The notes beneath the pieces are model-generated. The model did not search any database and was not told the DNA's origin. It saw nothing but the letters and a program-made list of their open reading frames with translations. This document shows positions 1,107 to 48,989 of a DNA stretch of 49,997 nucleotides, in pieces. This DNA comes from a virus (taxonomy: Duplodnaviria > Heunggongvirae > Uroviricota > Caudoviricetes). The position numbers and the translations under genes are program-made. The DNA is taken from positions 1 to 49,997 of the IMG/VR virus record IMGVR_UViG_2737471863_000004. One strand, 5' to 3'. The stretch's first letter is position 1; every line of letters starts with the position of its first letter.

Positions 1107-1128
1107 ATACTTAAAAAGGTGAAAAACT

Positions 1129-2133: not shown

Positions 2134-2146
2134 CTTAGCGACAGAA

Positions 2147-2175
2147 AGACCCGCTCAGAGGCGGGTCTCGTTTAC
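2147..2175 (+). terminator. Possible intrinsic terminator after the capsid-like gene
   Basis: GC hairpin AGACCCGC-loop-GCGGGTCT followed by a weak T stretch (CGTTTAC). Confidence 0.35.
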
Positions 2176-2324
2176 AGCATCAGGAAAAATGAAGAACTAT
2201 TTTTAAGCAGAGGCTTAAGCATGCCAGCGTTAATTAATCCAGGCAATGATCAGTTTTCGGTTATAAATTTCTTGCCTCACCAGGAATGCGCGGGATATAG
2301 TTTAAAGGTTGCCGCAAAATCGGC

Positions 2325-2600
2325 AGCCGGGCGTAGGAACCCGTGTTATCTGAAGGCGATACTACACGCGCCAGGCGTGTTTTTTTGTGTCGCAGCTTTG
2401 ACTCACCTAAAATTTATGGTGTGGTGGCTGATTGTATTTTTTTATTTTTTACGCCACATCATCAGAATTATGGTAGTCCAGGCGGGGCAGCTTTCGGGCT
2501 GGCCGGTATCCTTCAGAGCCGGTATTCCTACCCCCGTCTGGGCTACCACCCATGAGCGTAGGAACTCCGGTGGTAGCGTTACCCGCTATCTGAAGGAGGT
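2325..2600 (+). promoter_or_regulatory. P4-type immunity region: two direct repeats (seqA/seqC-like) flanking a complementary segment (seqB/CI-RNA-like)
   Basis: GCGTAGGAAC...TATCTGAAGG occurs at about 2331..2356 and 2557..2596. Between them, about 2510..2530 (CCTTCAGA...TTCCTAC) is the reverse complement of both halves. A hairpin plus T7 run at about 2369..2387 follows the first repeat. Confidence 0.45.
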
Positions 2601-2607
2601 TGCCATT

Positions 2608-2811
2608 ATGGCTACAGTCCCTGCTTTATCTCACCCTGAATTTACCTTTGTCTTTCTGGCTGTCCGCCGTACAGACCGTGATGCCCGTCCACGCCCTGTG
2701 CGTGTAATCGCAGAATGCGAGCATGCTGCACGCCTTAAACTTGCCACTGAATTTATCCTGAGCTTTGCTGCCCGTATCCCTGTGAAAAGAGCCGGGGAGG
2801 TGGTTGCATGA
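2608..2811 (+). CDS. Small hypothetical protein, 67 aa
   Basis: ATG at 2608 preceded by strong SD AAGGAGG; the SD lies inside the second immunity repeat. The start is internal to a longer track ORF that I reject. Confidence 0.4.
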   Translation: MATVPALSHPEFTFVFLAVRRTDRDARPRPVRVIAECEHAARLKLATEFILSFAARIPVKRAGEVVA

Positions 2812-3044
2812 AATCCATGAATTTTAAGCAAGGCTGCATATTGAGTGAACAGGGGGAGAGTCGTCTGTTACGGGCGGCACTGGCCAGTGAGTTTCTTGCA
2901 GAGGTCTTGTCCGTGCCCACAGTGAATGGAGCGAGAACTGTTTCAGCGGAAGGCGCTGCGGCTTTAGTGGCCTGTATTGCCGAACAACTGGATGGCGTTG
3001 TTAAGGAAACCAGCACAATTAAGGGAGTGATGCGCGATGAATAA
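2808..3044 (+). CDS. Hypothetical protein, 78 aa, upstream of the primase (position analogous to P4 epsilon)
   Basis: ORF with overlapping stop/start coupling to neighbours in the same operon. Confidence 0.45.
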   Translation: MKSMNFKQGCILSEQGESRLLRAALASEFLAEVLSVPTVNGARTVSAEGAAALVACIAEQLDGVVKETSTIKGVMRDE

Positions 3045-3447
3045 TAATCAAAATTTAAAGGCGCATGCTTTACGAACAGCAGTCTTACGCTACTACATTG
3101 CTGATGCATTCATTTCCTTAATGGTGCGTGTTCATAATGAACCTGTTTATATTGAAGATGGCGAACGAATAGAACTCTCCCACGAAAAAGTGGTGAGTAA
3201 TATTATTTACCATATTGAAATGCCGTGGGTGAATGAGTTTGGGGCTGATGCTGGTTGCATACTGGCCGCAGAGAAACTGGAAAAAATGCTTAAACCAGGC
3301 TTTATGTCAGAAAATATTCGCCTGTCAGTTTTTGGTGTCACAGAGATGCGTGAGGTTTACCGGGATATTATTTTCGGAGCACCTGATGGCGAACTACCCG
3401 AAGGTTTTGAATTTGTGAAGCCGGAAGGTCAGGAGGTGCTGCTGTGA
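3037..3447 (+). CDS. Hypothetical protein, 136 aa
   Basis: ORF whose stop overlaps the primase start (operon coupling). Confidence 0.5.
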   Translation: MNNNQNLKAHALRTAVLRYYIADAFISLMVRVHNEPVYIEDGERIELSHEKVVSNIIYHIEMPWVNEFGADAGCILAAEKLEKMLKPGFMSENIRLSVFGVTEMREVYRDIIFGAPDGELPEGFEFVKPEGQEVLL

Positions 3448-6131
3448 AAACACCGTCTGTATCCACGATTTCCGGAGCTGCAATTGGGCGCTGGCCTTAT
3501 ATCCTGTCAGCATTAGGTATTAAAGTACCGTCCGCAGGACATCATGGGGCTTGCCCTGCCTGTGGTGGAAAAGATCGTTTTCGACTGGACGATAAAGCGG
3601 GGCGAGGGACGTGGTTTTGTAATCAGTGCGGTCATGGCGATGGTCTTGATCTGGTTCGTCTGGTGACAGGAAGAAAGATAAAAGAAGTCGCCGGGATGGT
3701 ATCTGAGGCGCTTGCATTACCAGAAATACAGGAGAAGCCCGCATTGCCAGCCAGGAAAAAGGCCGCAGGAAAAGAAGCGGGCGCGGAGCGATATACCAGA
3801 CTCAGACAGCAGTCCTGCAATGGTGAGCCGGTCTATCTGACAAATAAGGGCTTACACGGGTATTCACTTCCCTTGCTGTCACAGCCTTTGAATCTGGCCG
3901 GAATAACATTTTCCACCGGTTCATTACTGCTGCCTTTGACGGATATTTCCGGGAATATTACTGGTGGCCAGCTTATCAATCCTGACGGGGATAAAAGTCT
4001 GCTGCCCGGTAGCCAGCTGTCTGGCGCATTCATTGCCCTGACCGATATACCCGCTGAAACACCTGAACAGGTGATTATCACTGAGGGTTTTGCCACGGCG
4101 CTTACCGTCAGTCTGCTGACTGAAGGATGGATCGTGGCGGCTGTCGCTGCCACCAATTTACTGAAGGTGACGGAGCAGATCCGAAAACGCTGGCCGGAAA
4201 CTCGGATCATTCTGGCCGGAGATAATGATCTGGCTGACGGCAAAGAAAACACCGGGCGTATTCAGGCAGAGAAAGCCGCCAAAGCGGTGGATGGCTGGGT
4301 AACGCTCCCTCCGGTACGCCATAAGGCTGACTGGGATGATTATCGGCAGGAAGTGGGGAAAGAACGGGCGAGAGATGCCTTTCGTGAAGAAATGACGCTG
4401 CATGGCAAAGGGCAGACCCGTTTACCAGAAGGGTTCCGGCTGACAAAAGAATATTTGTGGTACGACAAGCTGGTTAATAAGTCTGATGGTGATACAGAGA
4501 TACGTAATATCAAAATTTGCAGTCCGTTGCGGGTGACGGCAATCACCAGTGATGCTGATGGAAGTAATTACGGGCGTTTGCTGGAATGGGAAGATACCAA
4601 CGGAAACAGCCGTAAATGGGCAATGCCGATGGAGATGCTGGGCGGTAGCGGGGAAGAACTGCGCCGCGTTCTGCTGGTTAACGGGCTTTCTTACATCAAC
4701 ATTAATGGCATGGCCAGAGCATTCCTGATGGAATATATCTCGCTGTGTAAACCGGACAGAAAAGTAACCTGTGTGAATAAAACTGGCTGGCACGGCGGGG
4801 TTTACGTTCTCCAGGATGAAGTGATAGGGCGCGAAGCCCAGTCAGTCATCTTACAAACATCGAGTGTGCAGGGGCGTGATTTTCGTGTCAGCGGCACATC
4901 AGAGGGCTGGCGTGAAAATATAGGCCGTTATTGCATAAAGAATGCCCGTCTTGCCTTTGCGGTGAGTCTGGCATTTGCTGCCCCCCTTCTGAAACTGGTT
5001 GGTATCGGCGGTGGAGGTTATCACCTCAAAGGGGAATCCACAGACGGTAAAACCACGACGATGAAAGTGGCTGCATCAGTATGTGGTGGAACAGATTTCT
5101 GGCATACGTGGCGGGCGACGGGGAATGCCTTAGAAGGAACGGCGAGCCGCCGCAATGATGCCACGCTGATGCTGGATGAAATCCGGGAGGTTGACGGCAG
5201 GGAGGCGGGGAATATCGCTTATATGCTGGCTAACGGGCAGGGCAAAGCCAGAGCCAGAACAGATGGTTCGGTAAGGGAAACCAACCGCTGGAATCTGTTG
5301 TTTCTGTCTACCGGGGAACTGTCACTGGTAGAGCATGCGGCAAGCGCCGGGGAACGTACGTATGCCGGGGTTGAGGTCAGAATGATCCAGATCCCAAGCG
5401 ATTCGGGCAAGTATGGCGTGTTTGAAGAACTTCATGGCTTCAGTAGCGGGAAAACCCTGGCTGAGCATCTTGAGCAGCACGTAGCGCATTATCATGGTGC
5501 ACCATTCCGCGACTGGCTGTATTGCCTGACCGCTGATCTGCCGGAACTGACCAGTCAGGCGAAAGCCTTATTGAAAGAGTATACCCGAAGGCTGACGCCG
5601 GAAAATGCCGGGAATCAGGTTGGCCGGGCTGTTACCCGTTTTGCTCTGGTTGCGATGGCCGGGGAGCTGGCCACAAAAGCGGGCATCACAGGATGGCCGG
5701 AGGGAGAGGCCTTTCGTGCCGCTCAAAGCTGTCTGGCTGCATGGATGGCTGACCGGGGCCATACAGCTAATCAGGAAGATAAAGCGGCACTTGAACAGGT
5801 TCGGGACTTCATGACGCGTAATCAGTTCAGTCGGTTTGCTGACTGGAATGACGACAGGAACCGGCCTGTTTCAATGATGGGATTCAGAAAAGTCGATAAA
5901 GGAGACAACGTGACAGAGCCGGTTGTGACGTTCTACGTTCTCCCGTCAGGCTGGAAGGAGATCTGTAAGGGATTTGACTCGCGTAAGGTGGCCAGGTTGT
6001 GTGTGGACGCGGGCTGGCTGAAACCCGGTGAAGATGGCCGGACGCAAAACAGCATTCGCCTGCCAGAAATAGGGCTTAAACGTGTGTACCAGTTCAATAC
6101 ACAGGTACTGGGAAGCGCTGAACCTGAGTGA
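3444..6131 (+). CDS. P4 alpha-type primase-helicase
   Basis: 895 aa; N-terminal Cys/His zinc-ribbon (CPACGG...CNQCGH) and Walker A GESTDGKTT. Family recognised from memory. Confidence 0.85.
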   Translation: MKTPSVSTISGAAIGRWPYILSALGIKVPSAGHHGACPACGGKDRFRLDDKAGRGTWFCNQCGHGDGLDLVRLVTGRKIKEVAGMVSEALALPEIQEKPALPARKKAAGKEAGAERYTRLRQQSCNGEPVYLTNKGLHGYSLPLLSQPLNLAGITFSTGSLLLPLTDISGNITGGQLINPDGDKSLLPGSQLSGAFIALTDIPAETPEQVIITEGFATALTVSLLTEGWIVAAVAATNLLKVTEQIRKRWPETRIILAGDNDLADGKENTGRIQAEKAAKAVDGWVTLPPVRHKADWDDYRQEVGKERARDAFREEMTLHGKGQTRLPEGFRLTKEYLWYDKLVNKSDGDTEIRNIKICSPLRVTAITSDADGSNYGRLLEWEDTNGNSRKWAMPMEMLGGSGEELRRVLLVNGLSYININGMARAFLMEYISLCKPDRKVTCVNKTGWHGGVYVLQDEVIGREAQSVILQTSSVQGRDFRVSGTSEGWRENIGRYCIKNARLAFAVSLAFAAPLLKLVGIGGGGYHLKGESTDGKTTTMKVAASVCGGTDFWHTWRATGNALEGTASRRNDATLMLDEIREVDGREAGNIAYMLANGQGKARARTDGSVRETNRWNLLFLSTGELSLVEHAASAGERTYAGVEVRMIQIPSDSGKYGVFEELHGFSSGKTLAEHLEQHVAHYHGAPFRDWLYCLTADLPELTSQAKALLKEYTRRLTPENAGNQVGRAVTRFALVAMAGELATKAGITGWPEGEAFRAAQSCLAAWMADRGHTANQEDKAALEQVRDFMTRNQFSRFADWNDDRNRPVSMMGFRKVDKGDNVTEPVVTFYVLPSGWKEICKGFDSRKVARLCVDAGWLKPGEDGRTQNSIRLPEIGLKRVYQFNTQVLGSAEPE

Positions 6132-6157
6132 TTATCGCGTGAGTCTTATTTTTATGA

Positions 6158-6350
6158 GGTAACACTGGTAACAGAGGTAACACCCGTTACTGATGCGGTT
6201 CTTCAGTGTTACCAGTCAAAAATACTGACTGGTAACAGAGGTAACAAAAAATGGTGTGTTACCACGCGTTACCTCTTGATTTTGCTAACTGGTAACAGAT
6301 TAAATCCTTTTAAATCAATAGCGTTACACGTGTTACCAGTGTTACACGTT
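6158..6350. repeat. Iteron array (putative ori/crr-like primase binding sites)
   Basis: At least nine copies of GGTAACA / TGTTACC in both orientations within about 200 bp just after the primase gene; resembles P4 type I iterons (TGTTCACC). Confidence 0.55.
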
Positions 6351-6413
6351 CAGAACAAGAGGTAGGGATCCAAATCCCTTCTTCTGGCGGGCAACAGTAT
6401 AGGGCACAGAACG

Positions 6414-6686
6414 ATGAAGATGATGAGAATGTACTGCCCCACATGTCAGGCAGTAGCACGGATAGGTAAAACAAACAGGAAACACCCACAACTGTACGAT
6501 GTGTACTGCTATTGCTCTAATGTGGAGTGCGGTCACTCGTTTGTGATGAATGTTGCTTTCTCCCATTCCGTTAGTCCAAGCGCGCTGAACGGGCAGGGAA
6601 GGGTTAAAGAGCTGATTGATGCAATTCCACCCGAGGAACGGGAAAAGGCTTTAAAGTTGCTGCTGGCTGCGCAAAAGAATGGGTAA
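6414..6686 (+). CDS. Ogr/Delta-family zinc-finger late-gene activator
   Basis: Motif MYCPTCQ...CYCSNVECGH matches the CxxC...CxxxxC Ogr/Delta pattern; the true start may be one of the internal Met codons. Confidence 0.75.
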   Translation: MKMMRMYCPTCQAVARIGKTNRKHPQLYDVYCYCSNVECGHSFVMNVAFSHSVSPSALNGQGRVKELIDAIPPEEREKALKLLLAAQKNG

Positions 6687-7366
6687 AGTATGCGTCGGGA
6701 ATGGCCGATCTGTTCCCGGAACCTGAACACAGGATTTCAGTTTATACGGTCATAAAATTATTATTTTTCAACTGGTTATCTTCTTCATGTTTCACAAACC
6801 TTCATAAAATCACACACCTAAAATTAATTATCCATTTAATATCATAGAGTTGCGTATTCAGGCCATAGATTCGACGGACAGTAAAACTGAAAAAAAATGA
6901 ATTTCTTTTCATTCTTTTCAGTTCCTGTATCGCAGTACATCTCGAGGACTGGCACGGACTGGCGGTATCGTTTGTAAAAAATCCAGGCTGAAAATTTTTA
7001 GTGATATGAAAACCGCAGGCGGGTGCGGTGTAGTGCCGTTTTGGTCTGTCGAGCGTATATTTTCCCTTTTTCACGATTGCTGCATATCAAAACGAATGTG
7101 CAGATATCAGGCCGTGTCAAACCGTGAATCGTGGAGCCTAAATGCCCAAACTACGTTTGTAGACCTAGCTAGGGGAAGGTTTCCACATATACTGCTACCT
7201 ATCTTCCAGTCGCTGGTGAGGATCAAGGTAAGCTAACTGGTGAACAAGAAAAGTACTTTCGTATCTTGCGTACTCGTTTTTTTTGATTAGTATGTACAGG
7301 TAGTAACTGGATGGTGAGAATTCGTCATAACTTATCAAATTGCATGATGTTTATAGAGTATGAGTA

Positions 7367-8248
7367 ATGAGTCATAATAAAAAGGAATATGCTAAATTTT
7401 TCCGTCGCCCCATTTTTTCATCCTTAGCAAAAGGTAAGGATATTTCGGATTTATTTGGGAGTTTTGATTCTTACTGCTATGAAACACTGTTTTCAAACAA
7501 TGATAATAATGAACATGAGATTTCACTAAGGGATTTATTTACATCATTATATGATTTTTTGCGTCTGAATTATAGAAATGAATATGTTTATAAGACAGCA
7601 CTTGTCAATAAAATAATATTCGGTAAGCACAGCCCAAAAACAAGTTCGTCGTCCATAGAGTTACCAATTAAAAACTCTATAGTGGATGTTGCGGTGTTTA
7701 ATGGTACGTCTACAGCTTACGAGATTAAGACAGAGTATGATTCACCAAAAAGGTTGATTACTCAAGCCCCTGATTATTTGGATGTTTTTGATAAAGTGTA
7801 TATAGTTACACATCCAGAGTATGCAAGTAAATATTGTGCTTTAAATCTCCCCAGAGTGGGAGTTATGGTTTTGAATAAAAAAGATCAATTGAGTGTCATT
7901 AAGGAGGCAGATTCAAATATTGATTATATTAAAAGTGACAGCTTGTTTTCAGTTCTTAGAAAGGAAGAGTTCTTAGCTATAATAGAAGATTACACTTCAA
8001 CTAAAATAAATATGCCTAATGGATTGGTTTATGAATATTGTAAAGAGATATTCATGCAGATGCCATTAAACATAGCAAATAAATACTTTATCTCTGCTAT
8101 GAAAAAAAGATGTAACGACAAAGTTTTTTTGGATTATATTTATTCTCTTCCAGCATGTTTACGTGTTTTAGGTTATGCAACACCATTATCAAGAAAGCAA
8201 AAAGAATTCATCATGAATTTGATGGATGTAAAAATTAAAATTTGTTGA
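7367..8248 (+). CDS. Cargo protein A, 293 aa, with a putative PD-(D/E)xK nuclease-like core
   Basis: Very AT-rich codon usage versus flanks. Motif IVDVAVFNGTSTAYEIKTE (D107, E119, K121) fits the restriction-endonuclease-like pattern. No signal peptide or TM segment seen. Confidence 0.7.
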   Translation: MSHNKKEYAKFFRRPIFSSLAKGKDISDLFGSFDSYCYETLFSNNDNNEHEISLRDLFTSLYDFLRLNYRNEYVYKTALVNKIIFGKHSPKTSSSSIELPIKNSIVDVAVFNGTSTAYEIKTEYDSPKRLITQAPDYLDVFDKVYIVTHPEYASKYCALNLPRVGVMVLNKKDQLSVIKEADSNIDYIKSDSLFSVLRKEEFLAIIEDYTSTKINMPNGLVYEYCKEIFMQMPLNIANKYFISAMKKRCNDKVFLDYIYSLPACLRVLGYATPLSRKQKEFIMNLMDVKIKIC

Positions 8249-8269
8249 TATCCTCAGGAGTTGTAAGTT

Positions 8270-9220
8270 ATGTATAGCCCATATTTGTATGCGAGAAGTA
8301 CAGAGTTATTATGCCTTAGGGACCTCGTTGCGAAGGGAGTTAGCCTAAATGGTCTGCTACCAATTTTAGAACCAATTAACGTCAATACGAGAAATTTATT
8401 AACATGTTTAAATGTTTGGAATTCTGACATAATTGTTATCCTTAATCCTTATCAGGAAGATTTTTCTTCACACAATAACGTCTTAACTTTAAATCAAAAT
8501 TTATCAAGTGTATTAACAAATAAAAACAATATCATCTCTGGATATCTTATTCAGCCCAATACAACGATTAATGATATTAATAATTGGTTGAATGCTAACT
8601 TAAATAGACGAGTTGCACTTCTATATGATAATCCATCATTATCCAACTCTGATATTCAGTTGTTGGCGACAAATCAATTGATTAGTTATCATGTTGTTTT
8701 AAATAATAAAATGCTTCCTAATCAGTGCGCTCTTCTTCCTTTGTCGAAGTTAATTATTATTAGCGATAACTTTAGAAAGTTAGCAAAAAATGCTGATTAT
8801 AATGGGCCGGAACTTTTCACGCACGCACATCAATTCGTGGGACAAAATTACTTAGGATTTGGCGATTATACAATTACTGGCCAGGTACTAGATCTTGGAG
8901 GTGGTCAACCTTCTGCTGTTGCCGCACATTTGGTGTTCAAGAATTTACAAGCGAATACAGTTTGGATTCGTCATTTTGTATCAAGCAACACGCAACGAGG
9001 AAGTTCAAATGTTACTGCAAAATTTTTAGATGTTTCAGATCAAATTACAAATCTTGTTCCCCAACATCCAACCCAGTTTGGCAGCAACATTGGTCTTAAC
9101 TATTATTATTACAATAGTCAACCAACTGTAAGGCATTTCCCTGGGTTGCCAAAAAACAAACAGTATCAAATTACTCACCATATTTGTTTCATGCTGGATT
9201 TAATAGCAGGTCGTATTTAA
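8270..9220 (+). CDS. Cargo protein B, 316 aa, function unknown
   Basis: AGGAG RBS 11 nt upstream; 21 bp after cargo A, so likely an operon. AT-rich; no motif recognised. Its 3' end overlaps the integrase 3' end by 21 bp, convergently. Confidence 0.7.
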   Translation: MYSPYLYARSTELLCLRDLVAKGVSLNGLLPILEPINVNTRNLLTCLNVWNSDIIVILNPYQEDFSSHNNVLTLNQNLSSVLTNKNNIISGYLIQPNTTINDINNWLNANLNRRVALLYDNPSLSNSDIQLLATNQLISYHVVLNNKMLPNQCALLPLSKLIIISDNFRKLAKNADYNGPELFTHAHQFVGQNYLGFGDYTITGQVLDLGGGQPSAVAAHLVFKNLQANTVWIRHFVSSNTQRGSSNVTAKFLDVSDQITNLVPQHPTQFGSNIGLNYYYYNSQPTVRHFPGLPKNKQYQITHHICFMLDLIAGRI

Positions 9221-10423
9221 TAAGCTAGCGTACCATTCCATCATTACTTGTCGATCTTTAATATATTGCGCATGATTGTAAGTACCTCGAATAGAGTTCT
9301 TATCAACATGCGCAAGCTGCATTTCAATCCAGGCACTTTCAAACCCATGCTCATGCAAGATGGTGCTCATGGTATGCCTGAAACCGTGACCCGTTAACCG
9401 ACCGTGATAACCCAGTAGTTTTATCACTTTGTTGATGCTGGCTTCGCTCATTGGTTTCCTGACGTCATTTCGGCCAGGGAAAACGAGGCTGTAATTCCCT
9501 GTTATTTCTTGCAGCTTTTTCAGGATATTGATCGCCTGAGTTGATAACGGAACCAGATGGGGGCGGCGTTTCTTCATCCGTTCTTTGGGGATCTCCCATA
9601 AGGCATTATCTAAATCAAACTCAGCCCATTCCGCTGCACGTAGTTCAATTGTTCGCACGCCTGTTAGCATCAACAGCTGCGTGGCGTATTTGGTAACTAA
9701 ACTGCCCTGATAGTTATCCAGAGCATTAACGAACTCGGGCAACTCGCTTTCAGTCAGGAACGGGAAGTGTTGGGTTTTAGGTTTGTTGAGTGCGATAGCT
9801 AAATCGGGTGCAAAATTATACTTTGCTCTACCAGTGGCAACAGCATAACGAAGCACTTCACCACAGCGGCGGCGGATCTTACTGGTTTGCTCTAGCGCAC
9901 CTCTTTTCTCTATTTTTTGCAGGACGGTTAGCAGTTCTAATGGTTCAATCTGCTCAATTGGGCGCTGGCCGATAAAAGGAAAAATATCCTTTTCCATACA
10001 ATTGAGAACCTCTTTTGCATAACCCTCTGACCAGGTGGCTTTTTTCGATGAGTGCCATTCTCTGGCCACAGACTCAAAGCTGTTCTCATGCGCGAACTGC
10101 AAAGCAATCTTATCTGCTTTTCTGGCTTCACTTGGGTTTATCCCTTTGGCTAACATCGAACGCGCTTCATCACGTTTGGTACGTGCCTGTGCCAACGACA
10201 CATCGCCATATACGCCAAAGGAAATCATCTTAGGCTTACCTGCAAAGCGATAGCGAAAACGCCAGCCTTTACTGCCCGCTGTGTCGATCAGGAGTGATAG
10301 CCCCATACCATCGTTAAGCGTATAGGGTTTGTCCTTCGGTTTTGCTCTTTTTATTTGGATGTCAGATAGCAGCATGTGTATAGAAAAAAGATCGAACTCA
10401 GTTATACACAATGTTATACGCAA
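9200..10423 (-). CDS. Tyrosine integrase, IntS/P4 family, of the satellite
   Basis: N-terminal DKPYTLNDGMGLSL arm-binding motif and C-terminal HGFRH...RGTYNHAQY catalytic motifs; clear similarity across the length to IntS at 47596..48753. The likely true start is the internal Met at about 10375. Confidence 0.9.
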   Translation of the reverse strand: MRITLCITEFDLFSIHMLLSDIQIKRAKPKDKPYTLNDGMGLSLLIDTAGSKGWRFRYRFAGKPKMISFGVYGDVSLAQARTKRDEARSMLAKGINPSEARKADKIALQFAHENSFESVAREWHSSKKATWSEGYAKEVLNCMEKDIFPFIGQRPIEQIEPLELLTVLQKIEKRGALEQTSKIRRRCGEVLRYAVATGRAKYNFAPDLAIALNKPKTQHFPFLTESELPEFVNALDNYQGSLVTKYATQLLMLTGVRTIELRAAEWAEFDLDNALWEIPKERMKKRRPHLVPLSTQAINILKKLQEITGNYSLVFPGRNDVRKPMSEASINKVIKLLGYHGRLTGHGFRHTMSTILHEHGFESAWIEMQLAHVDKNSIRGTYNHAQYIKDRQVMMEWYASLLNTTCY

Positions 10424-39814: not shown

Positions 39815-41086
39815 ATGGCTACTTGGCGACAAGGAATCAACTCAGGCGGCTTTCTAGCTGGTATCGGTGGGCAAAACTCAAATGCGCCAAAGGCAAGTGA
39901 TGTAAGTGAGGCGTTGGCCTATATTCGCCAGAACAACGAAATGGAGCGTTCAGGTCGCAATAACATCGGCCTTCAGGCGTTGCAGGGACTTGGTAGTGTC
40001 GCTCAAACATATCAAGCTGCAAAGCAACAGGAAGCGGATGCTGCATTCCAAAAAGAATATGCGGCAGCCATCCAGTCCGGTGATCGACAGCAGGTTCGAG
40101 ATCTGATGACCAAATATCCTGGTCAATTAGAGAAGATTCAGTCTGGTATGAAGTGGGCAGACGAAGACCAGCGCAATTCTATCGGCACCTTAGCGGCTGG
40201 CGCACGCCTTGCGTCATTGTCTCCAGAAGCAATGCAATCATGGCTGCAAAACAACGCCAAGGAACTGGCGCGCGTCGGTGTTGACCCTAACAGCGTTGCT
40301 CAGATGTATCAGCAGAACCCTTCAGGATTTGGTGAGTTTGTTGATCACCTTGGGATGGCTGCTCTCGGTCCGATTGACTACTTCAATGTTCAGGACAAGA
40401 TGGCTGGTCGCCAGCAGGAGCAGCAAAGAATTAACGAAACAATCCGTAATAATGACATGACAAATGCCAGAGGGTGGGCAAGCAACAATATTGCGCAACA
40501 AAATGTCAATCTTCGTCGGATGGAATTAGAGGACAAGAAATACGACAGACTCATCGCAAATGAAACTAATGCCTTAAAACTTGCTGAATTGCAGGACAAG
40601 AGATTGCAGAATCAGCAAGCTATGGAGCAGGCAAAGCGAGATAAGGCCGATGCGTACAACTCTGGAATGGATAATCTCTCCAGAACGATAGAGACGGCTA
40701 CAAAAGTTCTTAATAGCCCAGGATTCACGGGATATTTCGGAACAAACCTAAACCCACTATCGAGTAGATTCATTCCAGGAACAGAGGCTGCTGATACAGA
40801 AACTCTGGTTGACACACTGAAATCTCAGGGATTCTTATCTGGCATTCAGCAGATGAAAGGGATGGGGGCTTTAAGTAATGCCGAGGGGCAAAAGGTAATG
40901 GATGCTATTGGTAGTTTGTCCCCAAATCAGTCTGAAAAATCAGCCAGAGCAGCTATCAAAACAATCATAAAAACCACTGAGATGGCTCAGAAACGTATGC
41001 AACAGAAATACGGGAAGGACATACAACCGTCTCAACAGCAGCTTTCTGATGATGACCTGATTAATAAATATCTCGGAGGGCAGTAA
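39815..41086 (+). CDS. Ejection protein (P22 gp20-like)
   Basis: 423 aa; positional assignment. Confidence 0.55.
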
Positions 41087-43200
41087 TGGCCTATAGTCGC
41101 GAACAGTTGATGACGGCGTTAAGGAATGCTGATGCTGCCGGCGATACTGAGGGAGCACGTCGCATTGCTCAGATGCTGTCTTCTGGTGATCAATCCACTC
41201 AAAACCAATCGCAGCCAGAAGAACAATCTCTGGTAGGAAAAGCCACTGACTGGCTCACTGGTGGTCAAAGCGCAGGGCAAATTGCAGAACAGGCTGGCCG
41301 TGGTCTGGTAAACATACCATTTGACGTATTGCAGGGTGGCGCAAGTCTGATTAATGCAATCAGCCAGGGACTTGGTGGCCCCAAGGTTTTGGATGATGTC
41401 TATCGTCCAGTCGATCGACCGACAGACCCTTACGCGCAAGCCGGTGAAACAATTGGTGGGTATCTCCTGCCAATTGGCACAGCGGCAAAAGCTGCTGGAG
41501 CGCCAGCAAAGCTCGCAGGAGACATCGGTTCCGCAGGAAACATGATTGCCGGTTCTCTTGCTGATGCTGCAAATCAGGAGGGTGATTTTGCACAAAATGC
41601 TGCCATTAACGGTGGTATCAATATTGGTGCTCAAGGCGTTCTTTCAGGTGTCGGGCGCGTTATTGCGCCAAGGGTTTCACAGGCTCTTGGTGGTGCAGCA
41701 CTGAATTCTGCTAATGATGTTTCCATGATGGCAAAGTCAGGTGCTGGGCGTCAGTCAATTGCCAGTCAGGCCGCTAATGTGTCCGAAGATGTAGCAAAAG
41801 CGGCTGAGTCTGCTGGAATTGATATAAACGCATTAACACCGGGAATGCGATCTGGAAGTCGTGGAATTGCACAAGCCGAAGGCGCATTGGCATCAACACC
41901 AGGGATTGTTCAGGATGCCCATCAGGCAGCATTTAACGAAATATCATCAAAGTTAAGTCGAAACCTTGATGAATTTGGGGCCGCATCTGGAACTGCATCA
42001 GAAAAAAGTGCGGCTATAAAACAAAGGATTCTTCAAAATCTTGATCAGATGAAGGATGCCGAGCGCGCGGCATGGGATGACGTGCGGTCAACAATGCCAA
42101 ATCAAAAAGCAAGAATGCTAAATGGTAATGCCGTTATTCAGGCAGAGCGATCTGCTGGCATACCGCTTACTCCTGAAATGAAACAGTTTGTTCAGGCAAA
42201 CAATCAAGGTGGAGTAACATTTGATGGCATGAAAGCATGGAGAGCGAAATTTGCTGATGCGGAGCAAAAATATAAGCGTAGCGGAGAGGCAAATGCGGCA
42301 AGGAGAGCAGGGGAAATACGCCGGGCAATTACTGATGATATGCGCACAATGGCGGAAAACGGCGGATTTCTTGATGACTGGCAAAAAGCTAATGATCTGT
42401 CTAAAGCGAGGTTATCAGCACAAGAGAGTGCAGAGTCTGTTTTCGGGCGTGATTTGGCAACAGATGCACTGATTACGAATGGAGTAAAATCTCTTCAATC
42501 ATCGTCAGCTAAAGGTCTTAATGGTCCTGCTGGATTCCATTCTATGATCCGCGCGCTGCCAGAATCAGAGCGTGTTCCTGCTATATCATCAATGTTGCAA
42601 GATGCTATCTCGCATGGTGTACGTGGTGGCAAAGCTGATGCAGCAGGAATTAACCATATCGCAGGGATACTTACCCCACAAAATGTAAAAGCCATTAGCA
42701 GATATTCCTCAGAACTCGGAAGAATTGCTGATGCATATGGCACTCTTGCAAGAGCAGCAGTGAAACCTCAGCAGTATATTGAAAGAACAGGGAGAACTGC
42801 CAATGTACTACGCGATCTGGATGCCGGTTTATCCAACGTCACATCAACAGTGTTAAATGCAATTGCCAACTCAACATCAGGTGCCATTGTTGGTGGAGCA
42901 GGAGGGGGCATTGCAGGCGCTGTCGCAGGTGCTTTAGTTGGCGCCGGGTTAAAAGGTGCTGTATCTAAAATTGCCACCACGCGTAGCGGTCGATATGCGA
43001 TAGAGAAAGCAGTTCAAGAAGCCACGAAAGCAGTAAGAGCTGGCGGAAGTAAAGAAGCATTAGCGGCGGCGGAACGCAGATTTATGGCAAATAAAGCCGC
43101 CGTAAAAGCAATACGCGATGCTATTGGTAGCGATGAATTCAATCGCTTGTCGAGAGCTGGTATTGTCGCCTCGTTAAGCGGTATGAATGAATATGAATAG
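41086..43200 (+). CDS. Ejection protein (P22 gp16-like)
   Basis: 704 aa; positional assignment. Confidence 0.55.
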
Positions 43201-43202
43201 CT

Positions 43203-43688
43203 TTATCTAATGTTGCTGCTACTGTTGCATGTGACGGTGTTTCCAAATCCTGAATTGCAGTTTGTATATGTGTCAACGCGTGTTGGGTAAGGTTGAGTTA
43301 TAACAGGCTGGCGCGCTTTTTGCTCGATCGCTTGCATTGTGTTTACAGCCTGATAATTCAATAAAGCCTGCTGGAATGCTTGGCTTTGCGCTATTTGTTG
43401 GGCTTGTTCTTGGCTTTGTAATTGAACATAAAGATTCTGAAGCTCAAGTCTTGCCTGTGCGTCACTTATCTTGCCTTCATCGACACCTTGCCCGAGCATC
43501 TTCGCAGCAAGGACATACAGCTTAGGTGTTGGTGCTGATGCCATGCGTGAGTCGTTCTTCACGCTGGCATCAAGGCAATTAGCCATATCACTAAGCTTTG
43601 GATAGCGTTGTTCGCAACTTGCTTGGTAGTCACTTACTTTTGCGCATCCAGCCAGCAGAAGCGGGATAATTAATAGTGATTTTTTCAT
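43203..43688 (-). CDS. Lipoprotein, 161 aa, prophage accessory gene (moron)
   Basis: Signal peptide with lipobox LLLAGC; Q-rich coiled-coil; co-oriented with mnt. Confidence 0.65.
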   Translation of the reverse strand: MKKSLLIIPLLLAGCAKVSDYQASCEQRYPKLSDMANCLDASVKNDSRMASAPTPKLYVLAAKMLGQGVDEGKISDAQARLELQNLYVQLQSQEQAQQIAQSQAFQQALLNYQAVNTMQAIEQKARQPVITQPYPTRVDTYTNCNSGFGNTVTCNSSSNIR

Positions 43689-43713
43689 AAAGTTATTTAT
43701 AAAATCCTTTCTA

Positions 43714-44028
43714 TTATTTATCAGAAGTTAGATTGTAATAATTGGTATAAGCTGAAATTGACTTCTGGCATGCTTCAAGAAACTCCTGTGGATTCATTCC
43801 AAGTCTTGCTTGCTCTGTGGTCAGAAAACGCTGTAAGAACTCATCTCCGCCAGGCATTTTTGTTGATTCTTGAAATGTTGCCATTTGTTTGATTGTGCCG
43901 CACATGCCAGCAAATTTCGAAGTTATCATGAGTTCTTGCAGGCCTTTAAGATCGCCATTATCTGATTTTTGTTTGGCGCAAACTATTGTAGAGAAGAACA
44001 ATATTAACAAAATAGCGATGCGTTTCAT
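43714..44028 (-). CDS. Secreted small protein, 104 aa, prophage accessory gene (moron)
   Basis: N-terminal signal peptide MKRIAILLILFFSTIVCA; AT-rich; start overlaps the mnt stop. Confidence 0.6.
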   Translation of the reverse strand: MKRIAILLILFFSTIVCAKQKSDNGDLKGLQELMITSKFAGMCGTIKQMATFQESTKMPGGDEFLQRFLTTEQARLGMNPQEFLEACQKSISAYTNYYNLTSDK

Positions 44029-44276
44029 TCTTCACCGTTGCCATGCATACATTTTAACTTCTCAACCTCATGCTCAAGCTCTATCAACCGCGATGCTATA
44101 GTTGCAATATCTAGTGCTTGAATATGTTTATTTTTTTCAGTCCATGCCTCAAGTGCTGCTACCATCTCAGCATTTAATGAACGAGAATTAGCCTCAGCCA
44201 GCTCAATAAGACGTTCCTTTATCTCTACAGGAAGCCTCAGATTCACTTGAGGGTTTTTGTACTTACGATCAGACAT
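44025..44276 (-). CDS. mnt: Mnt-like ribbon-helix-helix repressor (immI region)
   Basis: VNLRLPVEIKERLIELAEANSRSLNAEMVAALEAW parallels the P22 Mnt N-terminal RHH domain. Confidence 0.65.
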   Translation of the reverse strand: MSDRKYKNPQVNLRLPVEIKERLIELAEANSRSLNAEMVAALEAWTEKNKHIQALDIATIASRLIELEHEVEKLKCMHGNGEE

Positions 44277-44380
44277 CGGCGCATCCTGAATAATTATTTA
44301 CCACAGGATATGTAGGTATCTATTGACTATCAATGCGTACCTAAATACTATGTATGCGTACCACATACAAAGGAGCAAAA
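44277..44380. promoter_or_regulatory. Divergent immI control region with candidate operators
   Basis: 13-bp palindrome ATTGACTATCAAT and duplicated ATGCGTACC between divergent mnt and arc-like genes. Confidence 0.4.
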
Positions 44381-44527
44381 ATGAAAGTTAAGACATTAAG
44401 GATGCCAGAATGGCTGGAAAAGGCTTTGGAGCAGTCCGCGAAAAAGGATGATCGGTCGTTCAGTAATGAGGTATTGAGGAGACTAAAGGAGTCAGTAGCT
44501 AAGGATGGAATTGTTTGTCCAGAATGA
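44381..44527 (+). CDS. arc: Arc-like ribbon-helix-helix repressor, 48 aa
   Basis: ORF absent from the track; AAGGAG RBS; MKVKTLRMPEWLEKALEQSAKKDDRSFSNEVLRRLKES parallels P22 Arc. Confidence 0.55.
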   Translation: MKVKTLRMPEWLEKALEQSAKKDDRSFSNEVLRRLKESVAKDGIVCPE

Positions 44528-44593
44528 GTAAAGCCCAAGCTATTGCGAGTAGCTCGGGCTTAAATCGCCAGTAAATTTTGAGGAAAAACTGAC

Positions 44594-45517
44594 ATGAAAA
44601 GTATAGCAACAGCAGTATCTACTATCAACGTGCCATTCCACGGCGCAGAGCTTTATGTCGTCAATCACAACGGTGAGCCGTACACCCCAATGAAACCTAT
44701 CGTTGAGGGAATGGGGCTAGACTGGAAATCTCAACATAAGAAGATTTCTCAACGCTTCTCGAAGGGTATGGTGGAAATCACCATACCTTCTGCCGGTGGG
44801 GTGCAAGCCATGATTTGTATGGCTTTACGAAAATTGGCAGCTTGGTTGAACAGCATCAGTCCTAACAAAGTCCGCCCTGAAATCCGCGACAAGGTAATCC
44901 AGTATCAGGAAGAGTGTGACGATGTGCTCTACGAATACTGGACTAAAGGCTATGTGGTTAACCCGCGCAAAGCTAAAAAGGCGTTGCCTGGTAAAATCAC
45001 CACTGAACAGCAGGAAGCTATTAAACAGCTCGTCATGAGTCGCGGTCAGTCTCTGCCAAAAGAAAAACAGGCGAAGGCGATGATCACCATGTGGTCGTCA
45101 CTGAAATCCCATTTTGGATGTTCGTACAAAGAAATTAGTGAGGAGCAGTTTACCGAAGCACTGTCACTTGCAGCTCGAGTTCCACTTGAAGGTGAGTTCA
45201 TCGGCAAACAAGAGAAGAAAACCAACGAGCTTTCTGCAAAAGAAGCAAACAGCCTTGTATGGTTATGGGATTATGCCAACCGCTCACAGGCATTATTCCG
45301 CGAACTGTATCCGGCATTAAAACAAATTCAATCGAACTATTCCGGCAGATGCTACGACTACGGTCATGAGTTCTCGTATGTTATCGGAATGGCGAGGGAC
45401 GTTTTAATCAATCACACACGAGATGTTGATATTAATGAGCCAGACGGACCAACGAATCTTTCCGCATGGATGAGACTTAAGAATAAAGAATTACCTCCTT
45501 CAGTACATAACTACTGA
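44594..45517 (+). CDS. ant: Antirepressor Ant (AntA N-terminal domain family)
   Basis: 307 aa downstream of the arc-like gene; AntA-like N-terminus. Confidence 0.7.
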   Translation: MKSIATAVSTINVPFHGAELYVVNHNGEPYTPMKPIVEGMGLDWKSQHKKISQRFSKGMVEITIPSAGGVQAMICMALRKLAAWLNSISPNKVRPEIRDKVIQYQEECDDVLYEYWTKGYVVNPRKAKKALPGKITTEQQEAIKQLVMSRGQSLPKEKQAKAMITMWSSLKSHFGCSYKEISEEQFTEALSLAARVPLEGEFIGKQEKKTNELSAKEANSLVWLWDYANRSQALFRELYPALKQIQSNYSGRCYDYGHEFSYVIGMARDVLINHTRDVDINEPDGPTNLSAWMRLKNKELPPSVHNY

Positions 45518-45617: not shown

Positions 45618-47516
45618 ATGACAGACATTACAGCCAATGTGATCGTATCGATGCCTTCGCAACTCTTCACTATGGCTCGTTCTTTTAAAGCCGTAGCCAA
45701 TGGCAAAATTTATATCGGTAAAATTGACACTGACCCTGTAAATCCTGAAAACCAGATTCAGGTTTATGTGGAGAACGAAGACGGTTCTCACGTTCCTGTT
45801 TCGCAACCAATCATCATTAACGCTGCTGGTTACCCGGTATATAACGGACAAATTGCCAAATTCGTTACTGTACAGGGACATTCTATGGCTGTTTATGATG
45901 CATACGGAGCGCAGCAGTTCTATTTTCCGAATGTGCTGAAGTATGACCCGGATCAGTTCTCTAAAACTCTTGCGTCAAGCAGTGGCGCGTCAATGGTTGG
46001 AACAAACGAAGGAGGTAATGTACAAGAGTATCTTGATTCTTTGGAAGAAAATATTTCAGTTTTGAAAATGGCTAATTTAATACCTCTTCCTATACGATAT
46101 AGCAATGAACATTCCTACAACATGGATCTTGGCGTTAACCCACAAGCCTTAGCTGAAGACAAAAACTACTGGTATATCACAGAAGATGTAACAACTACAC
46201 CAGGTGATTACCTTTGCCGTATAAGCAGAATAAATAAATCGGATGGAAGCAAGAAAACAGCTACAGGGACTGTTAAGTGTCATGGCCAAGGAATTGGTGT
46301 TCTTTTTGATGGAAGGGTCTTTGTTGGTGGTTCATCAAATAGCAAGATATCTATTGTTGATTTTGTTAATGACACAATTAATGAACAAGATTGCGTAGGT
46401 TTATATAAAGATTTTCCATTTTGCTTTGCGGCAGATGAAAATATCATATACCAACTGCAAGATAATGATTCAACTAGCGCAAACATTACCAGGCTGGCAG
46501 TTCTTGATTTTCATGATGGTTTTAAATCTGATTTCTCAATAGATAGGCAAATAGTAAAGGCTGGATACCCACAAGGGATAGCTACAGATGGGAGATATAT
46601 TTTTATATCTTGCGGAGATTCTTGGTCTGCATCAACAGGAGGGCAATGGAATGACTATTGGACATTATTCAGGACAACTATTGGTGGAGTTGTAATCGAT
46701 AGAGCAGCATTCCGCAGAAGTTCCATGGGGGCATTAATAGGAGTTACAGCAACTCAGCATGAGCCGCAGGGAATAAGCTATTTTGATGGTAAGATAAGCC
46801 TCATGCAATATATAGGAGACTCATCAGCTACAAAATGTGTAATATTCAAGCAAGATGCAAGTGGAATATGGTTAAGGTCTATACCTAAAAACAGATATGT
46901 AACATACAATGGGTTAGATGAAATAGGTATAAACATTTCATCTTTAACTAAAGGTAAAAGTATTTCAACCATAGTTAAAAATATGGTTGATGGTAGCACA
47001 ATAAACTTTTCAATATCTGGCGAGACAGCGATCACAGAAGATACTGGTATTGGTGGTTTTGGTACATGCTCTATAACCAAGATAAACAACTTCAGAGCGT
47101 ATGCATTAACAGTAGAGTCAAGTTCAGCGCTCTCTCCAGAAATATCTCCAATGGTTTCCTTTGTTGGAGTGTACAATGATGTTCAGTCAGGTGCCAAGAT
47201 GGTTTCTGGAAGCAGAAAATCACTTTTGTCTGTATATGCATCTAACGATATTTTGACTAAAAAAACAATTAATGTACCTTATATTTTGACATGCTGTAAT
47301 TTAATATTACACTGCACTAATGACTCATCAGCAAACCCATTAAGTGTAAATAAGTTCTTTAGGGAAGAGATAGATGAATATATTAAATCTAATATTGCAT
47401 TAATTATTGAGTCACCTGATAGTAATATCATGGCAAGTGTTAAATTCACATCAACAGGGATAGTTGTGAATTCAGTTACAGGTGCATTTATATTAAAGAA
47501 TATATACGTGTCATAG
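45618..47516 (+). CDS. Tailspike protein: P22 gp9-like head-binding domain with a divergent AT-rich receptor-binding part
   Basis: N-terminus [47 protein letters not shown]... matches P22 tailspike as recalled; the remainder does not, and its DNA is markedly AT-rich. Confidence 0.9.
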
Positions 47517-47595: not shown

Positions 47596-48753
47596 TCACT
47601 CCACCTTTTCATCAAGCCAGTCCGCCCACCACTGCATCATTTCTCTGCGCTTATCGAGATACTGTGCATGGTTGTAAATCCCACGCACAGATCCGCCGTT
47701 GGCATGTGCCAGTTGCACTTCAATGGCGTCGGCAGGCCATTCGTGCTCGTTCATAATCGTGCTGAATTCATGCCTGAATCCGTGACCGCTTTCCAGCCCC
47801 TCATAGCCGATTTGTTTGATCACAAGTAGCACCGCGTTCTCGCAGATTGGCTTCTTCTTATCGTTGCGCCCGGCAAAAACAAACTCTGATACTGGTTTGG
47901 TGATTGAGCTTAGCGTAGTGAGAAGTTCAACTACCTGGTCTGACATAGGAACCACATGAATTTTGCGTCCCTTCATCACATTGGCGTCGATGGTGATAAT
48001 ACTGTTTTCAAAATCGACGTTCTTCCATTGCATGGAACGAAGCTCTTTCGTTCTTAGGGCTGTGTAGCGTAAAACTTTGGTCGCAATGAGCGATACGATG
48101 CTTCCTGAAAATGTTGCCAGTGCTTTGTTGAATGCCGGGATCTGGTCTGCAGGAAGAAACGGGAAGTTCTTCTTGCGGTATCCCTTCATGGCGTCAGCAA
48201 GGTCAGGTGCAGGGTTATATTTAGCCCTGCCGGTGACAATAGCGTAACGGAAAACCTCGCCGCATCTTCTGCGGGCTTTATTGGCTCGCTCCATTGCACC
48301 GCGATCTTCAAATCTGCGGATTACTTCAAGAAGTTGCATCGGCTCAATATCCTGAATTTCAAGGCCGCCGATGATAGGTAAAATGTCGTCATCAAACATT
48401 TTTGCAAGTTCAGTCGCATACCCTACTGACCATACTTGCTTCTTGTGCTCGTACCATTCTTTGTAAATCGCACTAAAGGAATTGTTGTTAGACGAAGCCT
48501 TTTTCGCCTTTACCGGATCGATGCCAACCGAGATGTCTTTCTTCGCGGTCCATGCTTTATCTCTTGCCTCCTGCAAAGTCATTAGCGGATATTTTCCTAC
48601 GGTCAGTATTTTTTCCTTACCGTCAATCTTGTAGCGAAGCTGCCATACCTTTTTCCCTGATACAGGGACATAAAGATACAGGCCATTACCATCGAGAAGG
48701 CGGTATGGTTTTTCTTTCGGCTTTGCTGCTTCAATCTGCTTAACGGTGAGCAT
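47596..48753 (-). CDS. intS: Integrase IntS (tyrosine recombinase, argW-specific)
   Basis: From the internal Met MLTVKQIEAAKPKEKPYRLLDGNGLYLYV..., near-identical to E. coli K-12 IntS as recalled; adjacent to argW. Confidence 0.9.
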   Translation of the reverse strand: MLTVKQIEAAKPKEKPYRLLDGNGLYLYVPVSGKKVWQLRYKIDGKEKILTVGKYPLMTLQEARDKAWTAKKDISVGIDPVKAKKASSNNNSFSAIYKEWYEHKKQVWSVGYATELAKMFDDDILPIIGGLEIQDIEPMQLLEVIRRFEDRGAMERANKARRRCGEVFRYAIVTGRAKYNPAPDLADAMKGYRKKNFPFLPADQIPAFNKALATFSGSIVSLIATKVLRYTALRTKELRSMQWKNVDFENSIITIDANVMKGRKIHVVPMSDQVVELLTTLSSITKPVSEFVFAGRNDKKKPICENAVLLVIKQIGYEGLESGHGFRHEFSTIMNEHEWPADAIEVQLAHANGGSVRGIYNHAQYLDKRREMMQWWADWLDEKVE

Positions 48754-48914
48754 GGGTAAAAATCCGGTGGGTAAAATTATTTTATCCACTTTTTACCCGT
48801 CATGGTGTGCGGCTGTCAACGATCTGACGCGAACCATGACGAACCGTGAATATACGGAAGGCTTGATATTCAGGGGATTTTGCGGACTGGTGCGGATGGG
48901 AGCGAACTGATAAA

Positions 48915-48989
48915 TGGTGTCCCCTGCAGGAATCGAACCTGCAATTAGCCCTTAGGAGGGGCTCGTTATATCCATTTAACTAAGAGGAC
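48915..48989 (-). tRNA. argW: tRNA-Arg (anticodon CCU), argW
   Basis: Reverse complement GTCCTCTTAGTTAAATGGATATAACGAGCCCCTCCTAAGGGCTAATTGCAGGTTCGATTCCTGCAGGGGACACCA folds as a cloverleaf with anticodon loop CUCCUAA and a CCA end; its 3' end carries the att core. Confidence 0.9.

Follow-up and report, generated by a model that had tools for sequence, protein, structure and literature searches.

The prophage analysed here raises the question of what two genes for exported proteins are doing directly behind a repressor gene of P22 Mnt type. They were found in the IMG/VR virus record IMGVR_UViG_2737471863_000004 (positions 1 to 49,997; this whole stretch of 49,997 nt is called the window below) and code for a secreted protein of 104 residues (sec104) and a lipoprotein of 161 residues (lipo161). 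The original prediction saw in them a pair that might be made in lysogens, a candidate exclusion or conversion module at the locus where P22 carries sieA. The explanation that we favour, tentatively and at a little under an even chance, is that they are two independent moron cassettes behind mnt, expressed in the lysogen and exported to the envelope, in which lipo161 would most plausibly be an outer-membrane counterpart of SieA and sec104 a periplasmic protein that binds or neutralises an incoming factor.

The three open reading frames (ORFs) lie on the minus strand with the overlap and short spacing that had been described for them. The mnt-like gene (44025-44276, 83 aa) heads a leftward transcription unit and codes for a ribbon-helix-helix (RHH) repressor of the Pfam Arc family (PF03869, E 3e-10), equal in length to P22 Mnt and 42% identical to it across the N-terminal RHH; it shares 93.5% nucleotide identity with the gene annotated mnt in phage CUS-3. 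Its stop codon and the ATG of sec104 (43714-44028) have 4 nt in common (ATGA), 25 nt separate sec104 from lipo161 (43203-43688), and the lipo161 stop is 2 nt away from the stop of a convergent gene 16 homologue. The sole promoter-like site upstream of the three genes is a Pmnt-like candidate, TTGATA-17-TATCCT (44305-44333, minus strand); the consensus scan returned no more promoter-like sites than expected from shuffled sequence, and this candidate rests on its position and on the analogy with P22 Pmnt. From mnt to the end of lipo161, no terminator-like or promoter-like site was detected in the scan of the window. Because mnt and sec104 overlap and no such signal precedes lipo161, a single Pmnt transcript fits the arrangement, and the proposed co-transcription of sec104 and lipo161 with mnt is structurally likely.

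The surroundings are those of P22. The gene 16 homologue (41086-43200, plus strand) codes for an ejection protein of 704 aa, annotated in RefSeq as 'P22-gp16 family phage DNA ejection protein' and 64% identical to the N-terminal part of P22 gp16; the gp7 and gp20 genes lie upstream of it. On the other side of mnt, an imperfect palindrome with 18-nt arms, 78% complementary and operator-like, occupies 44309-44347 between mnt and arc, matches the P22 Oarc/Omnt region in position and overlaps both divergent promoter candidates, the second one being a Pant-like TTGACT-17-TACTAT obtained in the same type of scan (44323-44351, plus strand). It is followed on the plus strand by an arc-like repressor gene (44354-44527, 57 aa; Pfam Arc, E 2e-5) and by the antirepressor gene ant (44594-45517, 307 aa; P22_AR_N, E 7e-45, and P22_AR_C, E 6e-30). 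A sar-like antisense RNA was found at the arc-ant junction (44527-44593, minus strand), at the position of P22 sar; the match to Rfam RF00262 is full-length but reaches 29.3 bits (E 0.004) where the gathering score is 43, compatible with a divergent sar homologue. Divergent RHH genes of Mnt and Arc type, a palindromic control region, a sar-like RNA and an Ant with P22_AR domains together identify, at the level of sequence, a complete P22-type immunity I (immI) region in a P22-like E. coli prophage. The variable interval ends on the right at the tailspike gene, a gene 9 homologue (45618-47516, plus strand; Pfam Head_binding, E 1e-66).

The P22 map reads 16, sieA, PsieA, terminator, orf59a, mnt, Pmnt/Pant, arc, sar, ant and 9. 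Comparison of the gene orders places sec104 and lipo161 between gene 16 and mnt, at the position of sieA and orf59a, in agreement with the locus assigned to them originally. Like sec104, P22 orf59a is directly downstream of mnt in the Pmnt unit, but it codes for an unrelated basic protein of 59 aa devoid of signal peptide and is followed in P22 by a terminator, and P22 sieA differs in having its own promoter behind the mnt terminator. Both window genes had also been called AT-rich, which is true of sec104 (37.8% GC) and not of lipo161 (44.9%, near the window mean of 46.8%).

The lipoprotein assignment of lipo161 was borne out. Its N-terminus, MKKSLLIIPLLLAGC, has a basic n-region, a hydrophobic core and a lipobox of the type [LVI][ASTVI][GAS]C, here L-A-G-C, with Cys15 encoded at 43644-43646 and an alanine at position +2, as expected of a signal peptidase II substrate. 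The lipobox cysteine is kept in 28/28 relatives, down to 51% identity, as x-[ASVT]-G-C in 27 of them and S-A-C in one, and so are all five cysteines of the protein (the lipobox residue, Cys25/Cys38 and Cys144/Cys154). According to the Lol sorting rule, lipoproteins without aspartate at +2 are destined for the outer membrane. Since the +2 residue among the 28 relatives is Ala in 23, Thr in three, Val in two and never Asp, mature lipo161 is predicted to have its lipid anchor in the inner leaflet of the outer membrane.

The AlphaFold2 (AF2) model of lipo161 has a predicted local distance difference test score (pLDDT) of 66 overall and of about 80 in residues 20-100. It is laid out as a helical N-domain containing Cys25 and Cys38, a long Gln-rich helix of 50 residues (76-125) and a C-terminal disulfide hairpin, Cys144/Cys154. 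In the family alignment, residues 126-161 occur as two interchangeable C-terminal tails, ...QPYPTRVDTYTNCNSGFGNTVTCNSSSNIR and ...PPVQLQNNNVTTNCTTYGNQTRCQSY, on near-identical N-domains, the N-domain having a mean column identity of 0.79 against 0.51-0.57 for the tail; as the tails are swapped on N-domains that hardly vary, within-gene recombination in the family is indicated.

The 104-residue product shows the typical signal peptide expected of the secreted protein that had been announced. It begins with MKRIAILLILFFSTIVCA|KQ, that is MKR, a hydrophobic core and V-C-A|K, the signal peptide covering residues 1-18 (nt 43975-44028). Since its relatives present A-x-A and no cysteine at the cleavage site, sec104 is identified as a signal peptidase I substrate and not as a lipoprotein. 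The mature protein of about 86 aa contains the conserved Cys43 and Cys87 and a near-invariant motif, FQESTKMPGGDEF..RF, and its AF2 model is a three-helix bundle (pLDDT 78), so that sec104 is described, from sequence and model, as a small disulfide-bonded periplasmic helical protein.

Both proteins match PHROG families of unknown function, PHROG 6067 for lipo161 (E 3e-110) and PHROG 19844 for sec104 (E 6e-63). No match was found for lipo161 or sec104 in Pfam, NCBIfam, PADLOC or the sequences of the PDB, and Foldseek with both models gave nothing better than E 0.76; in these searches no homology or fold match bears on an exclusion or conversion function. Homologues of lipo161 form 94 clusters at 90% identity; those of sec104 form 18 clusters at 90% identity and, by profile search, 290 clusters at 50% identity. 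The ratio of non-synonymous to synonymous substitution rates (dN/dS) is 0.17 for sec104 and 0.02 for lipo161, the latter at a dS of 0.27 between the window and its orthologue in prophage Gally, which is the signature of strong purifying selection on lipo161. By the PHROG matches, the many homologue clusters and the dN/dS values, both are conserved, selected genes and not chance ORFs. Products that are both small and devoid of any known domain could also come from fortuitous reading frames or decaying remnants without function, but such an origin is already contradicted by full-length conservation across genera, by invariant cysteine and motif columns, by these same dN/dS values and by the measured transcription of a lipo161 orthologue (see below), and we give it next to no credence.

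The idea of a two-gene module did not survive the comparison of loci. Among the IMG/VR loci, sec104 was present upstream in 9/80 of those with lipo161, and lipo161 downstream in 10/42 of those with a sec104 relative. In 5426 complete E. coli genomes, lipo161 was detected in 186 (3.4%), including the O104:H4 outbreak lineage and the adherent-invasive E. coli (AIEC) strain LF82, and the window allele of sec104 in 18; the whole mnt-sec104-lipo161 trio is likewise present in 18, O104:H4 outbreak strains included. Carriers of this arrangement are O104:H4 2011C-3493 (genes O3K_RS07755-07765), EC17GD31 and TW10573, among others. By megablast against phage genomes, the match in Gally, vB_EcoP-720R6 and VSe13 is limited to window positions 43203-43689, the lipo161 ORF plus one base, and in these three phages the neighbours of lipo161 differ from those in the window. 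Elsewhere its upstream neighbour is an mnt of another class, a gene for a small membrane protein, an opposite-strand gene for a PEGA-like lipoprotein or for a 121-aa protein, or the tailspike gene directly. As lipo161 is often preceded by genes of the opposite strand or lacks an mnt in its vicinity, its expression in these genomes would not depend on Pmnt. Scans for a sigma-70 promoter of its own in the standalone contexts gave nothing convincing and did no better than shuffled sequence.

The sharp boundary of the Gally homology and the presence or absence of the gene among syntenic relatives of diverse architecture are those of a moron; the promoter and terminator that a moron would own were not found in the window, where expression would depend on Pmnt. 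It is therefore well supported that lipo161 and sec104 are independent mobile accessory cassettes, housed in the hypervariable interval that runs from gene 16 to the tailspike gene. This interval was named 'ant moron' by Villafane et al. (2008; PMC2629481), who described rapid flux within it, with ten types in sixteen genomes, its contents being immI, sieA and unrelated genes to which no function is assigned. The window adds one more type; in that description neither family was characterised, and their export signals, the adjacency of lipo161 to gene 16 and the linkage of sec104 to mnt did not figure.

Relatives of lipo161 were found in E. coli, Morganella, Yersinia ruckeri, Providencia, Pectobacterium, Klebsiella aerogenes, Tatumella and Serratia. 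In the six of the seven non-E. coli genera whose flanks could be read (the neighbouring gene calls are incomplete in Serratia), the prophage is P22-like and carries the gene in the interval that separates the ejection-protein genes from the tailspike gene. Five of these six have it directly convergent on gene 16, the exception being Pectobacterium, where a small gene for a lipoprotein-like protein of 117 aa intervenes. The family thus appears confined to P22-like prophages of Enterobacterales. A likewise restricted distribution was reported for sieA by Leavitt et al. (mBio 2024; PMC10883804), who defined SieA types A, B and C and found the gene in 22/66 P22-like phages. Neither type A (P22) nor type B (E. 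coli HS1; 212 aa, motif FNRYPGEARKFNK) was detected by tblastn in the window or in any fetched lipo161 or sec104 locus, type C not being included in the search. In the 5426 complete E. coli genomes, HS1-type sieA was present in 21 against 186 for lipo161, which is about nine times commoner.

Lipo161 and SieA thus share a slot adjacent to gene 16 within the interval from gene 16 to gene 9, the phage group and the host order. They are of similar size (161 aa against 162-212 aa), are both expressed from the prophage (for lipo161, in the Gally orthologue) and located in the envelope (as predicted for lipo161), and exclude each other in the examined loci as far as types A and B are concerned. The proteins themselves are different. 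No sequence similarity links them, and SieA is a polytopic inner-membrane protein with three or four transmembrane helices, a cytoplasmic motif FxRYPxEAxxFNK and no signal peptide, whereas lipo161 is predicted to be a soluble helical protein held by a lipid anchor in the outer membrane; lipo161 and sec104 each begin with a single signal sequence, after which come amphipathic helices, and neither is polytopic. Among systems that block DNA injection by short-tailed phages, SieA is to our knowledge the only one to have been studied, and the majority of P22-like phages do not have it.

The mechanism proposed for lipo161 is that of the phage lipoproteins Llp (T5) and Cor (phi80, N15, HK022), which are sorted to the outer membrane in a Lol-type manner and protect at the entry step. 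These count about 60-80 aa and act on the siphophage receptor FhuA; P22-like phages use the O-antigen and not FhuA. Lipo161 was considered as a relative of Cor and rejected, because the match (PHROG 1119, E 0.078) spans only residues 1-29, the signal peptide.

Transcription of lipo161 in a lysogen is documented by its orthologue in prophage Gally of AIEC LF82, GALLYPH_13, which has 99% protein identity and an upstream context different from that of the window. In the RNA-seq data of Misson et al. (PLoS Pathog 2023; PMC9928086, S1 Table; values in log2(fpkm+5), fpkm being fragments per kilobase per million), GALLYPH_13 reached 6.29/5.96 in lysogeny broth (LB), 7.9-8.2 in Dulbecco's modified Eagle medium (DMEM), 10.3 after 1 h in macrophages and 8.5-8.7 after 6 h, and the adjoining gene 16 stayed at 3.6-4.1 in all conditions. 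In LB its expression was surpassed only by that of the C2 repressor gene and amounted to 4.5 times the median of the prophage, while the structural and lysis genes of Gally were silent (PMC9928086). It was not listed as a moron by these authors because a 5-fold cut-off was used (PMC9928086). For lipo161, the expression in lysogens that had been proposed is therefore supported by these data. Gally mnt gave 3.6-3.9 in LB, 5.7-7.1 in DMEM, and 8.9-9.1 and 8.3-8.5 after 1 h and 6 h in macrophages (PMC9928086). Between mnt and lipo161, Gally carries on the opposite strand GALLYPH_14 (L001:4621-5040), coding for a lipoprotein of 139 aa with a weak PEGA-domain match; it is the most expressed accessory Gally gene in macrophages (log2 11.0), only C2 (about 12) being higher (PMC9928086).

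These profiles bear on a role in lysogenic conversion, in which lipo161, and perhaps sec104, would alter the envelope for the benefit of the host (resistance to serum or antimicrobial peptides, stress tolerance, adhesion) and for which the lambda lipoprotein Bor is a precedent. The predicted envelope location of the products and the presence of lipo161 in the O104:H4 outbreak lineage and in LF82 are compatible with such a role, as is the rise of GALLYPH_13 over LB, about 4-fold in DMEM and about 18-fold in macrophages, shared by its PEGA-like lipoprotein neighbour (PMC9928086). Against it, deletion of the Gally prophage left the survival of LF82 in THP-1 macrophages unchanged (PMC9928086), and the Pfam and PHROG searches revealed no similarity of lipo161 or sec104 to Bor, Lom, TraT or other known conversion factors. 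Moreover, lipo161 is restricted to one phage type and one slot in eight genera of differing lifestyle, among them plant pathogens, fish pathogens and Tatumella, and a phage-directed role therefore fits better than a host-niche role. We consider conversion unlikely.

The same data weigh on the possibility that both proteins serve the lytic cycle, as lysis or spanin-like factors or as receptor blockers that keep progeny from re-adsorbing to cell debris, the latter having a precedent in the progeny-protecting lipoprotein Llp of T5. A predicted outer-membrane lipoprotein with a long helix recalls a spanin, and a weak match of lipo161 to an Rz-like spanin PHROG was obtained (E 0.058); it covers the signal peptide only, and lipo161 was rejected as a spanin. 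The protein has no C-terminal membrane segment, both genes are oriented against the late operon, whose transcription crosses the interval, and are carried by a minority of P22-like phages, and the Gally orthologue is transcribed under conditions that leave lysis and structural genes silent. A lytic function is thus very improbable.

The distribution of sec104 is different. Its family extends over Enterobacterales, Pseudomonas, Methylophaga, Nitrosomonas, Chromatiaceae, Sulfurimonas, alphaproteobacteria including Rhizobiales, and further groups, and includes members in phages with long tails; chromosomal relatives are isolated genes in islands or prophage remnants. In phages it is tied to mnt: a same-strand Mnt-type gene lies at most 2 kb upstream of the sec104 relative in 36/42 IMG/VR loci, abutting it in 21. 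The Mnt genes concerned belong to at least five sequence classes, and three of the loci are from phages that are not P22-like, with an Mnt-like gene of 142-148 aa divergent from Bro-N/Ant genes. Repeated capture of sec104 behind a lysogen-active promoter is the simplest reading of these arrangements; sec104 would ride on Mnt promoters because they are active in lysogens.

A small, helical, disulfide-bonded periplasmic protein with such a distribution could also be an orphan immunity protein, shielding the host against the toxin of a competitor such as a type VI amidase or muramidase effector, a bacteriocin or a lysozyme. In these traits sec104 resembles the immunity proteins of Rap1a/Rap2a (PF18602; about 100 aa, secreted, helical, disulfide-bonded) and of Tai4 type, and its wide occurrence in Gram-negative bacteria as an isolated gene of islands and prophage remnants is typical of orphan immunity genes. 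A true Rap1a-family gene was moreover found at the identical position in a P22-like prophage of Tatumella terrea (GCA_039523755.1, L150:3604-3942): it codes for a secreted type VI secretion system (T6SS) immunity protein of 112 aa (PF18602 at 51.9 bits, the cut-off being 27.7) and is placed between two known neighbours, overlapping the stop codon of mnt on one side and preceding the lipo161 homologue on the other. This gene may be a prophage-borne orphan immunity gene, and its presence there shows that protective periplasmic proteins are recruited to the slot between gene 16 and mnt. Sec104 itself was rejected as a Rap1a relative (hhalign probability of 0.3% against the Tatumella protein, no Pfam match); no cognate effector is known for it, 41 diverse members of its family matched no Pfam family, and no match to immunity-protein structures was obtained. 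In 17 non-viral loci (13 genome loci and 4 contigs), no conserved partner, effector or T6SS gene adjoins it, the neighbours being mutually unrelated. We hold the orphan immunity reading, for which the Tatumella gene provides an analogy of position only, to be improbable.

Other exported proteins occur at this position. In some P22-like prophages a family of 129-aa exported proteins (MKLIIALLIASIPACATADC...) is encoded between mnt and sec104 (L120:3588-3977, L096:4078-4464), which adds to the enrichment of the slot in envelope proteins. The secreted genes of 129-133 aa upstream of sec104 in L120 and L154, alike by eye, were considered as a shared partner and discarded as they are not homologous. 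In a phage that is not P22-like, mnt and sec104 are followed by two further secreted proteins (L105:4913-5260 and L105:4384-4701), one of them with a TonB C-terminal domain (PF03544, E 1e-14), which may act as a decoy or blocker of TonB-dependent uptake.

Returning to the favoured explanation of two cassettes behind mnt, both genes would be made from the repressed prophage through Pmnt and exported to the envelope. Lipo161 would then act as a functional counterpart of SieA and halt superinfecting P22-like phages, working on the needle, on the conduit of ejection proteins or on a secondary receptor from the outer-membrane or periplasmic side instead of from the inner membrane, and sec104 would bind or neutralise an incoming protein that acts in the periplasm. 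It is also possible, if doubtful, that the case is more general: lipo161 would represent an unrecognised class of superinfection-exclusion protein, anchored in the outer membrane and blocking, from its periplasmic face, the DNA conduit or the outer-membrane step of P22-like podophages, and would be the commonest occupant in E. coli of the slot held by SieA in Salmonella, and sec104 would belong to a widespread periplasmic protective family of Gram-negative bacteria, repeatedly wired to Mnt promoters by temperate phages.

Several observations weigh against this explanation. The slot shared with sieA is positional evidence only, and the interval also holds genes unrelated to the envelope. In the eight other contexts examined, lipo161 is preceded by a leader, aaaactAAGGAGagttaaycat, with a conserved AAGGAG ribosome-binding site. 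This site is lost in the window and in the O104:H4-type arrangement (43689-43713), where the junction falls at the ATG, and the sole Shine-Dalgarno-like AAGGA before the window gene is about 17 nt from the ATG. Because the strong site is lost, translation of lipo161 in the window may be weak or coupled. Gally mnt was at background in LB (PMC9928086), and Pmnt-driven expression may therefore depend on conditions. The literature search yielded no expression data for the O104:H4 copy of the operon, nor for sec104. Finally, a target specific to P22-type ejection proteins is disfavoured for sec104 because its family is broad and includes long-tailed phages.

Further features of the window concern the integration of the prophage. 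On its left side (246-10423), the plus strand carries genes of the kind usual in P4-like satellites or islands, among them one for a P2-family major capsid protein (1129-2133) and one for a DUF927/Toprim/zinc-ribbon primase (3444-6131); a tyrosine integrase gene (9200-10423, minus strand) belongs either to this satellite or to the P22-like prophage. A second tyrosine integrase gene (47596-48789, minus strand) directly follows the tailspike gene and adjoins a tRNA-Arg(CCT) gene (48915-48989). A simple P22-type prophage would have its integrase and tailspike genes at opposite ends; since an integrase gene here adjoins the tailspike gene, the arrangement suggests tandem elements at argW.

The kind of element described here, accessory genes of the 'ant moron', is already known, while both protein families are uncharacterised. 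If neither gene had a phenotype, the locus would be another variant of this well-known interval. Through its association with mnt, the small periplasmic family of sec104 becomes a candidate protective factor. If exclusion does operate from the outer-membrane side, lipo161 would provide a second and mechanistically different handle on the gp7/gp20/gp16 conduit that crosses the envelope, and its activity would bear on phage therapy and on the typing of strains of the O104:H4 lineage and of LF82 type.

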